From: a virus
Strand: one strand, 5' to 3'
DNA: 64,000 bases
Virus record (IMG/VR): IMGVR_UViG_3300045988_135167
Positions within the stretch are counted from its first letter, which is position 1. Each line of letters opens with the position of its first letter. The notes under the pieces were generated by a model. That model worked only from the letters and a program-made list of their open reading frames with translations, was not told the DNA's origin and did no database searches. A program made the translations under genes and the position numbers. Positions 38,873 to 48,844 of this stretch are shown here, piece after piece.

Positions 38873-41800
38873 GTGCGTCAGATTAACGGCGCGCACCATC
38901 CTTTTATTATGGCTATTGATTATTCCAAGTTAAGACCTTCCGACTTTCGACCGGAAAGAGATTCAGAGTTCCGGGCTGAAACCAATTTCCTTCAGCGGCA
39001 GGAGGACCGATCCACCCGGCTCCAGAAGGAAGAGGGGCAAGCCCAGGTCGAAGCCGAAGAACCGCTGGCCAAGTTTGAACAGGAGCTGGCCAAGACGATT
39101 GAACGGAATCGGAAGAATGCCGAGAGTGCGGAAGACCGCCAGCTCCGGTTGACCCGCCAGCAACAGGCCGACATTGACAAGGAAACTTCCAAGTTCGTGG
39201 CCACCACCACACGGGAGGACCGGGCCACGACCCAGGCAAACCAGAAAGCTGAGAGCAGGTTGGCCGCGCTGGGAAAAACCGGGAGAAGCGGTCTGGTATT
39301 CAATACGATTGAAGAGGCCGAACAGTATAACAGCCGTCCGGATACTGACTTTGTTGACTATGTGTCAGGAGGCGCGGAAGCTTTCCGCAACAAGGCTTCT
39401 TCCCTGGGCCTGTCCGTGGTTGATCCGGCTTCCCTTCCCCAGCCTGTCAAGACCCGGCCAGCCCAGCAACGGGGAGATGAATTGACCGGGACCATGCTCA
39501 AGCGCAGTCCCTATGGTATAGCCGTCGGCAGTGATGGAAGCATTGTGGTCTCCGACAAGTTCATGCAGTTCGCCCTGAACCCGGACCTGGACCCGGCGAC
39601 CCTGGCCAAGAATATTTCCCGAACATTTGATGCGTTTAAAAAAGAAGCCAATCCCACGCAGAACCCAAACAGCGAGATCAATTCACGCAACCTTGCACCC
39701 GAAGACATTGAACAACAAATCAGAACCCTCCGGGCCAGTGATGTCCGGACCCGTGATTCCGTCCGGAAAATCCTGCAAGAGCGGCAGGACGCGCTATCAA
39801 AGTACAAAGCAAGAGAAGAGAAGATTCAGCAAATCCAGGGTGGAAGCCCCGGCCAGCAAACTCAACGGCAGGAAGGAACCCCGCAAGTGGGGGAGCCGCT
39901 TGGAGGTGGCGAATCTTCTGAACTCACGTTCGTCCAGAACGTCATCAGCCAGATCGACCGCCTCCGCACCGAGCCGGAACTTGCCGCTGAAGCCTTCGGG
40001 GAACAGCTCGCCGGACAGACAGACGCACAATCCGTAGCCCAGCGCGGAGCGGTGGCCGATGAATTGCAGTCGGCAATCGACCAGCAGGAGCGTTACAAAC
40101 GCACGGAGGAACTGGCCGCCCGCATGCGGCTGATTGAAGAGAACAAGGACAAGCTCGCCGAATCGCTGGTGCGCCAATCGCCCAACCTGGAATTCAGAAC
40201 CATCCGCAAGGAGCTGGATGATGACAGCTTGATGGCCAATGAAGCGTTGGAGCAATGGGTCGTGAACCGTGGATTCCCTTTGACTCCGCAGGAAGCCGAC
40301 ATTATTAACAGCCGCTCCAATGAACTCTCCGCAAACGCGGCAATCGCCGATGACTATGAGAAGGCCAGGGACCAGGCGGTGAGGGAATATCTCAAGTCCC
40401 AGGATGCGTCGCTGGATGACCGGGGCATTGATACCATGGGCCTTCAGCACTATGCCATGCGGCACATGGGCCAGCTTGACCAGGACAATTCCCCGGAGCG
40501 CGTGGCCAGGGAAGCCCTGCGCCATTGGGCCTCGGAGGCCCGGCAGATTTTTGGCGGCCAGGCGTTTGAGTCCGACCAGATGGTCAACCCCCTGGATGCG
40601 TTGCAGTGGGTCCACCGTCCGGAGACCGGGAAGTATATCCTTCAATTCATTGATCCCACCACCAAGGAGGGGTATGGCAACGGCTATGAAGTGGACTTCA
40701 TGGGGGTGCATGACAACGCCCGCCGCCTCGGCGTTACACCGGAACAATACCTCGACGCTTTGGCCCTCCCCCTGCGCCAGGGAAACCTGGGTGACAGCCG
40801 GGACACCAACACACTCTTCGCTTATGATCCCATTAACCAGGTTCTTGTGGAAAATGCAACGATTGGGCAGGGCAATTCCGCAAGCTATTTTGATGATGCC
40901 CTGCTTGAGCGCAGTATTGAACAGGCCCGGAAAGCTGGCGCGCCGCAAGAGCAAATTGATGCGACCGTCAAAGAGGTCCAGCGCGTCCGGGATGAAGCGA
41001 GCCGTATCGTGGTCTCGGACCTCCTTCAGGAGTCGGATGCCATGGCCCTGGTCAGCGACACACCGCTTGAGGGGATCATCCCCCAGTCGGTCAAGGACAG
41101 CATCCAGGCATCCACGGCTGTCAATTTCCGGCAGTTCTATGACATTGAAAAGAAAGCGGGCAAGGATGATCAGGAGATCATCCGGGACTACATGTCCGAT
41201 GTGAAGGACAAGAAAATATCCATGGGGGTCAACATGGCCCTGGCCCGCTGGGAGAATCAGTGGAACCGCATCAAGCTGGCTTCCGAACAGTGGACCAAAT
41301 CCGCGCTCTCCCTGCTCCCCGGAGTCAACCTCAACGAGGGACAGGGCCAGCGGTATGCTTCCGAATGGGAAGCCTTGAACAAGCGTGACCAGCTGATCAC
41401 TTCTGCCGTGGGACGCGCCGGGTCCGTGGCAGAGTGGACGGGAGAATTTGGATCACTGGCTCTCCAGTTGGGAGAGTCTGCAATCTCAGGGGGATTGGGT
41501 TCCCTGGCCGGACGCGGGGCGGCCCGGCTTCTGGCCACCCGCGCCGCAACGATTGCAGGAACCAGCGTGGCTCTCCGAAGTGCTGAAGTGGTGGGAGCCG
41601 TAGCCCGGCCCGGAATCACCAGCCGCATCGGGCAGGGAGTCACCCGGCTCCTGACAACGGAGTCTGCAACCCTGGCCCGGCTCGGAGCCGGGACGGCCAA
41701 CTCCATGTACATTGCCATGCAGAGCATGCCCCAGACCTACGGGGATGTCTTCACCCACCGCTACCAGCAAGCCAGGGAGATGATCAACAACGATCCCCTC

Positions 41801-48844: not shown

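Follow-up and report, generated by a model that had tools for sequence, protein, structure and literature searches.

A giant cysteine-poor protein with a zincin-like motif, probably an internal virion protein, in a clade of human-gut phages

To our knowledge, the only giant injected phage proteins known in detail are the RNA polymerases of crAss-like and N4-like phages. A protein of similar size is encoded in the viral DNA analyzed here, a stretch of 64,000 nucleotides (nt) from the IMG/VR record IMGVR_UViG_3300045988_135167 (the whole stretch is called the window), and its gene, hereafter the giant gene, was compared with what has been described for the ejection proteins of podoviruses. The genes of such proteins form a small operon that closes with its largest gene, and the proteins are matched by size and synteny since their sequences have diverged too far (PMC8954989; PMC13434306). 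Inner-membrane ejection proteins resembling gp16 of phage T7 are the largest of the set, are encoded at the operon end, are helical and combine membrane-spanning segments with a swappable enzymatic module (PMC8954989). Among the Schitoviridae, phage N4 has as its third ejection protein gp50, a virion RNA polymerase of 3500 amino acids (aa).

We think it rather probable that the giant gene encodes an internal virion protein of the ejection or pilot type, a counterpart of N4 gp50 and T7 gp16 that is equipped with a zincin-like module. We further infer that the protein is packaged in the window phage, ejected and inserted into a membrane, and that it has peptidase activity. A virion-packaged, injected protein is supported by the position of its gene at the end of a late operon in related phages, by depletion of cysteine, and by homology of its C-terminal part to a virion protein verified by tandem mass spectrometry (MS/MS). 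This idea was common to both hypotheses of an earlier interpretation made from the letters of the window (the sequence-only reading), one of which proposed a divergent virion RNA polymerase and the other a polyvalent injected protein, and it is supported by the same three observations.

The open reading frame runs uninterrupted from 38873 to 48844 on the plus strand and comprises 3323 codons when counted from its GTG. It also stays open in an independent contig of 98% identity, with 282 synonymous versus 67 non-synonymous codon differences. Thus, the giant frame is a real coding gene under purifying selection and not a chance reading frame. The N-terminus MAID[YF] is kept in most lineages of the family (one clade begins with MPNNQ) and therefore ATG 38909 was taken as the start, giving a product of 3311 aa; the GTG at 38873 was rejected on the same ground. 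The 10-kb frame of 3323 residues noted in the sequence-only reading was accordingly retained as a gene, with its start moved downstream.

Searches of Pfam, PHROGs and NCBIfam produced no consistent match for the window protein or nine family members, PDB sequences gave none with the single sequence or with family profiles, and GenBank phages gave none to the giant protein by megablast or tblastn (E-value up to 10), in agreement with the initial remark that no family-level match could be made. An exhaustive phmmer search with aa 2112-3311 as the query against 1.84 billion representative proteins retrieved one fragment and three full-length relatives (3211-3381 aa), which are colinear with the window protein from end to end and share 24-30% identity with it. 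Pattern scans of IMG/VR and metagenomes revealed 56 further loci, nearly all from human-gut assemblies and on contigs of ~65-75 kb, which brought the family to 51 complete members (3198-3381 aa) belonging to about seven lineages. In some gut samples the coverage of the contigs exceeds 300x. A quicker homology search was empty for aa 1498-2497, aa 1-1100 and a 9-sequence C-terminal alignment, but it missed known homologues as well and its negatives carry no weight. No prophage copy of the giant gene was found in a contig scan of a bacterial genome collection. Among known sequence families the giant protein is thus an orphan. The DNA polymerase A of the window phage shows at best 26% identity to any GenBank phage, and its terminase has no match among GenBank phages. 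These ~70-kb human-gut phages form a previously undescribed clade, and the window phage itself is far from anything cultured.

The six other lineages share a gene order found at more than 40 loci. On one strand follow the genes for endolysin, (166 aa), a protein of ~1000 aa, one of 244 aa, one of ~410 aa and the giant protein, usually succeeded by a cysteine-rich gene of 202 aa. This block converges on an opposite-strand kinase gene (five lineages), a 103-aa gene and a ligase gene (three lineages), the ligase gene being present there wherever the locus extends that far. In the L004/P0002 lineage, the giant gene is followed on its own strand by a kinase-like gene, and the 202-aa gene is encoded on the other strand. 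The window lineage has the segment formed by the giant gene and the 202-aa gene inverted, with four small genes inserted beside the pair. Because four further independent assemblies show this inversion, it is not a misassembly of the window; inverted repeats flanking the inverted segment were not found. Since every lineage but that of the window has the giant gene at the end of the late operon, this is its ancestral place, and not the end of an early block. The sequence-only reading had described the gene as closing the early-strand block, which holds for the window lineage, whereas in each of the other lineages it ends the late or structural operon and has the operon's orientation. That interpretation had also put N4 gp50 last in a rightward block, before a convergent late block. 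The N4 record contradicts this placement: gp50 lies on the strand of gp51-gp56, where gp54 (299 aa), gp53 (885 aa), gp52 (150 aa) and gp51 (644 aa) come before it and it is the last gene; it is convergent with gp49 and with the replication block. The analogy with gp50 nevertheless holds in a better form, the layout of the relatives being that of N4. Similarly, as described for the gp16-like class, the largest gene ends a small putative ejection operon within the structural module in the six other lineages.

The second line of evidence comes from the C-terminal module (aa ~2448-2990), which carries the motifs RxxENxLAxRKxLPE, SPxSTLRNxxGT, PDAxAK, LLPTGxRTPxWV and PFFxFxYHT. A Foldseek comparison of AlphaFold2 models with BFVD gave as the top match the second half of an uncharacterized protein of the Cellulophaga phage phi19:3 (E-value 9.7e-5, probability 0.99). 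This protein, gp129 (1871 aa; genome KC821608), is encoded last, behind three genes that carry a structural annotation. When a nine-sequence family profile was used as the hhalign query, family aa ~2448-2990 aligned with gp129 aa 1196-1607 (93.9%, E-value 1.6e-7, 406 columns), and the alignment spans the most conserved motifs of the family, including the five given above (the second as SPxSTLRN). A comparable result was obtained with gp123 of phage phi18:3, a protein of 1935 aa that is 89% identical to gp129 (93.0%, E-value 3.5e-7), and the controls (reversed gp129, shuffled gp129, phi19:3 gp120 and N4 gp50) had probabilities of ≤1%. The GenBank record of gp123 reads 'structural protein, annotation based on experimental MS/MS proteomics analysis', and gp120 and gp121 of phi18:3 are also verified by mass spectrometry. 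The C-terminal module is thus remotely homologous to an MS/MS-verified virion protein, a link that is the strongest, though indirect, evidence for the giant protein as a virion component. As a side observation, the GenBank record of phi19:3 sets the label 'similarity to gp123' on the 102-aa gp128 and leaves the true orthologue gp129 hypothetical, probably through an off-by-one annotation error.

Amino acid composition provides the third line. The 51 homologues contain 0-3 cysteines each, with 28 of them having none and the window protein one, compared to ~55 expected in 3311 aa from the cysteine content of the rest of the window proteome (1.66%; Poisson P ~1e-22). N4 gp50, gp51 and gp52, the proteins shown to be ejected, contain no cysteine, and gp53-55 have some. 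Likewise, phi18:3 gp120 (227 aa), gp121 (499 aa), gp122 (103 aa) and gp123 are all cysteine-free. All known or presumed ejection proteins examined (N4 gp50-gp52 and phi18:3 gp120-gp123) therefore lack this residue, whereas adjacent tail proteins contain it. A cysteine-free composition may serve as a general, computable marker of ejection proteins that are threaded through the tail.

The regions of the giant protein are listed in Table 1. The Gly/Ala-rich hydrophobic stretches and charged helical regions mentioned in the sequence-only reading are evident in the composition, the former at aa 800-1120. Residues 1-350 are weakly conserved and contain gaps in the family alignment. The Gly/Ala-rich region holds the invariant acidic motif AVEGGxEExADExxQW followed by a hydrophobic KIxxLGAxGG segment (aa 1093-1117). 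This is the sole hydrophobic segment kept in all lineages and forms a clear hydrophobic peak in the window protein, which makes it a candidate membrane-insertion element. No assignable motif was found in the middle region (aa ~1750-2440). AlphaFold2 models, built from four sequences and of low confidence (mean predicted local distance difference test score, pLDDT, of 44.5 and 48.4), are almost wholly helical. Thus, of the membrane-spanning segments and helicity that mark the gp16-like class, one segment (aa 1093-1117) is conserved, and the helicity comes from these low-confidence models only.

A helical protein with a Gly/Ala-rich hydrophobic segment could also be the tail tape-measure protein of a very long-tailed phage. 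Its length is tightly kept (3198-3381 aa) over lineages with 24% identity, there is no other tape-measure candidate in the window, and the weak Foldseek matches (E-value above 0.05) include tape-measure proteins. At the tape-measure scaling of 1.5 Å per residue, 3311 aa would correspond to a tail of ~500 nm. Gene order argues against this role: the giant gene is the last large gene and has only the cysteine-rich 202-aa gene after it, rather than distal-tail or baseplate genes, and genes for a tail tube or chaperones are missing ahead of it. Furthermore, tandem repeats were not found in the giant protein, none of the nine members matched a tape-measure family of Pfam or PHROGs, and the C-terminal module is common to a protein of the Pachyviridae, a family with documented podoviral morphology (phage Gundel; PMC8776804). 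We therefore regard a tape-measure protein as quite improbable.

The zincin-like module contains the sequence HEMAHVLD at aa 1568-1575 (nt 43610-43633), the single HExxH of the window protein. HExxH was the one hard motif noted in the sequence-only reading, and in the form HExxHxxD it occurs exactly once per protein in all 51 members. An invariant EF...NP sequence follows at aa 1646-1655 (nt 43844-43873), and its Glu, ~75 residues downstream of HExxH, could be the third zinc ligand. The AlphaFold2 model of this part (pLDDT 55-79) has two strands, the HExxH helix and three or four further helices. Strands, an HExxH helix and further helices are the usual order of zincins. Among the nine members scanned, Pfam M91 and M90 each gave a motif-level match in one member; the single-sequence match of the window protein to M91 had an E-value of 0.007. 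The giant protein thus resembles zincins of the M91 (NleD-like) and M90 (MtfA-like) families in its HExxH helix and invariant downstream Glu, but the matches lie below the curated cut-offs (17.1 bits against 25) and the zincin fold is putative. Since the Cellulophaga homologues have no HExxH, the zincin-like and C-terminal modules are separable. It is likely that the giant protein carries a zinc metallopeptidase; candidate substrates are proteins of the envelope or host at the site of entry, or the giant protein.

These features suggest the following course for an internal virion protein. The giant protein would be made late and a few copies would be packed in the capsid. At infection it would be threaded, largely unfolded, through the tail channel before the DNA, its linker-separated domains passing like beads on a string. 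Contact with the cell membrane would be made by the hydrophobic Gly/Ala-rich segment of the N-terminal third, and the invariant HExxHxxD...E module would then act as a zinc metallopeptidase, which may process the giant protein or cleave proteins of the envelope or host where the phage enters.

Probable delivery by the virion, a conserved zincin-like motif and low-complexity linkers between blocks would equally suit a polyvalent anti-defence or host-takeover effector as the term is used by Iyer et al. 2017, for example one like DarB of phage P1, in which self-cleavage by the zincin releases several enzymatic modules. Such an effector largely overlaps with an internal virion protein bearing a peptidase. 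However, a search of the nine members against Pfam LPD, MuF, ART, methylase and helicase families gave no match and hence no second enzymatic domain, and all lineages have one constant, strictly colinear architecture. Polyvalent proteins reportedly shuffle their domains. We consider a multi-enzyme effector unlikely; from the corresponding hypothesis of the sequence-only reading, a zincin-like peptidase combined with other modules, the conserved motif is kept and the term 'polyvalent' is unproven.

The other initial hypothesis, a highly divergent virion-packaged RNA polymerase for early genes like N4 gp50 or crAss-like gp66, is encouraged by the gp50 size class and operon position, by the lack of any other recognized RNA polymerase gene in the 64-kb window, and by ~1700 aa without assigned function (aa 1750-2440, aa 2990-3311 and the C-terminal module). 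Yet a regular-expression search of the window protein found no T7-like A/B/C motifs and no T/DxxGR, which upholds the earlier failure to see T7-like or DxDGD motifs by eye, and neither an Asp triad nor DxDxD is among the invariant residues of the family. The sole D.D.D match (aa 2921) falls in a variable acidic loop (aa ~2919) with one invariant Asp. The crAss-like enzymes have DxDxD in a double-psi beta-barrel, whereas the models of the giant protein are almost all helical. Alignment of the family with N4 gp50 by hhalign gave 1-3%, with the best stretch in the Gly/Ala-rich region and the other stretches equally insignificant, and family profiles matched no solved polymerase among PDB sequences. 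Moreover, 17 sigma-70-like promoter sites are present in the 36.5-51 kb region, compared to 5.8 expected, and the pattern CTTGAC-N16-19-TA(G/A)(G/A)(A/T)T occurs five times in the window against 0.9 expected (none of 100 shuffles reached five); both enrichments fit transcription by the host polymerase. A virion RNA polymerase finds no support here and is on these grounds very improbable. There is also a slim chance that the C-terminal module and the ~700-aa helical middle region carry unrecognized catalysis, for example that of a novel nucleic-acid polymerase or a DNA-translocating motor, with the zincin processing or activating it after entry. If true, this would be a new class of giant injected enzyme, equivalent to the N4 virion polymerase and built from unrelated folds.

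Several points weigh against the proposal of an internal virion protein with a zincin-like module. The link to the virion comes from phi18:3 gp123 and not from the window phage's own particles, and the gp123 homology covers ~550 of 3311 aa and is seen by profile-profile scoring only, with no detection by hmmsearch. HExxH by itself is a short motif and the AlphaFold2 models do not demonstrate a zincin fold; these models are poor, Foldseek matched them to nothing in the PDB, and no fold was assigned. Treating the two genes before the giant gene as analogues of gp14 and gp15 is unproven, and the 244-aa neighbour, which looks globular and has an invariant cysteine, may be an adaptor or tail protein and not the analogue of gp14. 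The tail, portal and capsid genes of the clade were not assignable by homology and a podovirus is assumed. Finally, the giant gene of the window shares its strand with the ligase and kinase genes, and we infer its late expression from the relatives and from a promoter motif that is also found near the primase gene.

Table 1. Giant gene, regions of its product and associated features in the window
Feature	Position (nt)	Strand	Description or basis
Giant gene	38909..48844	+	3311 aa plus stop; true coding region
5' control region	38841..38908	+	CTTGACT-16-TAGGAT promoter-like site, overlapping 15-bp GC-rich hairpin (38865-38902), T tract before ATG
N-terminal region, aa 1-350	38909..39958	+	highly charged, Gln-rich; ends in Gly/Gln/Pro-rich linker; from composition
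Gly/Ala-rich region, aa 800-1120	41306..42268	+	from composition and family alignment
Low-complexity linker, aa 1270-1345	42716..42943	+	Pro/Glu/Ala-rich; gap-rich columns in family alignment
Zincin-like module, aa ~1360-1670	42986..43918	+	HEMAHVLD and EF...NP
Middle region, aa ~1750-2440	44156..46228	+	charged, helical
Conserved C-terminal module, aa ~2448-2990	46250..47878	+	motifs and homology to Cellulophaga phage proteins
202-aa companion gene	48849..49457	+	directly downstream of giant gene; 13 Cys in CxxC-like pairs
Late-operon partners	51229..56340	-	directly precede giant gene in all other lineages
407-aa gene	51229-52452	-	Cys-free, Gln/Pro/Ala-rich product
244-aa gene	52460-53194	-	synteny
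1047-aa gene	53197-56340	-	synteny
CTTGAC-class sites	4574-4603(-), 26592-26620(-), 38841-38869(+), 59515-59544(-), 63119-63148(-)		all sense, ahead of gene

The 202-aa gene adjoins the giant gene downstream and in the same orientation in five of seven lineages. Its product is 41-54% identical between lineages, better conserved than the giant protein, and may act in the cytoplasm as a zinc-binding partner or a chaperone. Many Cys and Trp residues are invariant in the 1047-aa protein, whose middle part is variable and which sits where N4 has gp53; it probably belongs to the outside of the tail or binds the receptor. Searches of PDB sequences, Pfam and PHROGs gave no homologue of this protein, and a profile of the 244-aa family was likewise empty against PDB. 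Comparisons by hhalign showed no similarity of the 1047-, 244-, 407- and 166-aa families to N4 gp51-55, nor of these and the 202-aa family to phi19:3 gp118-128.

In each of the seven lineages (window, L003, L004, L006, L014, L015 and L024), a strong GC-rich hairpin of differing sequence is found within the ~100 nt before the start of the giant gene. It is accompanied by a TTGA(C/G) box in six of the seven lineage representatives, the L006 stretch having the hairpin only, and is followed by a T tract in some lineages, including that of the window. The hairpin has stayed with the giant gene through the inversion and may keep expression low as a terminator or attenuator, or else insulate an embedded promoter. 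Three other copies of the CTTGAC-class site precede genes of the TerL-side and endolysin-side blocks, which are presumed to be structural. At three of the five sites an ATG is located ~10 nt after the -10 box. This spacing suggests short-leader mRNAs, which fits the total absence of Shine-Dalgarno sequences. The Bacteroidota promoter motif TAnnTTTG was not enriched.

Other features of the window were also observed. Iteron-like 8-bp units (GAAGCGTT / GAATCGTT) are present in both orientations at 27230-28240, together with AT-rich stretches and a perfect 33-nt inverted repeat (28073-28105 / 28208-28240), in a low-GC gap of ~3.3 kb that separates the ligase-side block from the divergent replication block; this region looks like a replication origin or regulatory hub. 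A TnpB or IS605 OrfB-type gene (13560-14693, minus strand; Pfam OrfB_IS605 and Cas12f1-like TNB) is inserted in the replication module between the Holliday-junction-resolvase side and the DUF2800 nuclease. On the same strand, an 836-aa helicase (16002-18512) contains an intein with a LAGLIDADG homing endonuclease (Hom_end_hint, Hom_end, LAGLIDADG_3).

The giant protein can be compared with known systems, among them N4 gp50. Both belong to the same size class, are encoded last in the operon, follow two smaller proteins (ejection proteins in N4) and one of ~900-1000 aa, and have a Gly/Ala-rich hydrophobic N-terminal part succeeded by a low-complexity linker, which in gp50 is a stretch of ~100 aa after the N-terminal domain (PMC13434306). 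These likenesses in layout and composition are best taken as analogies and not as homology: unlike gp50, the giant protein has no T7-like RNA polymerase domain or motifs, and homology between the two was not detectable. A peptidase module has not been described for gp50 (PMC13434306), in which HExxH was not searched for. The T7 gp16-like proteins (609-1337 aa) are smaller, the giant protein exceeding them 2.5-5 times in length, and tblastn and PDB-sequence searches gave no similarity to them. T7 gp16 carries a lytic transglycosylase, and the giant protein has the zincin-like module instead.

Thus, a common human-gut clade keeps a protein of N4 gp50 size and position that is virtually cysteine-free, shows no polymerase signature and bears an invariant zinc-protease motif. 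This family could show what is gained, other than transcription, by injecting a protein of 370 kDa, and by what means so large a chain gets through a narrow tail. Its module link to a verified Cellulophaga virion protein gives an experimental system. Like the giant gene, the genes of the uncharacterized phi18:3 gp123 and phi19:3 gp129 (Pachyviridae, Baltivirus) are the last and largest of a run of virion-protein genes; their products have zero cysteines, and the phage genomes are 71-76 kb long. In contrast to the giant protein, gp123 and gp129 are ~1400 aa shorter and have no HExxH, their similarity is confined to the C-terminal module, and the neighbouring genes are not detectably homologous. 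The hosts of the Cellulophaga phages are marine Bacteroidota, whereas the phages with the giant gene come from the human gut.

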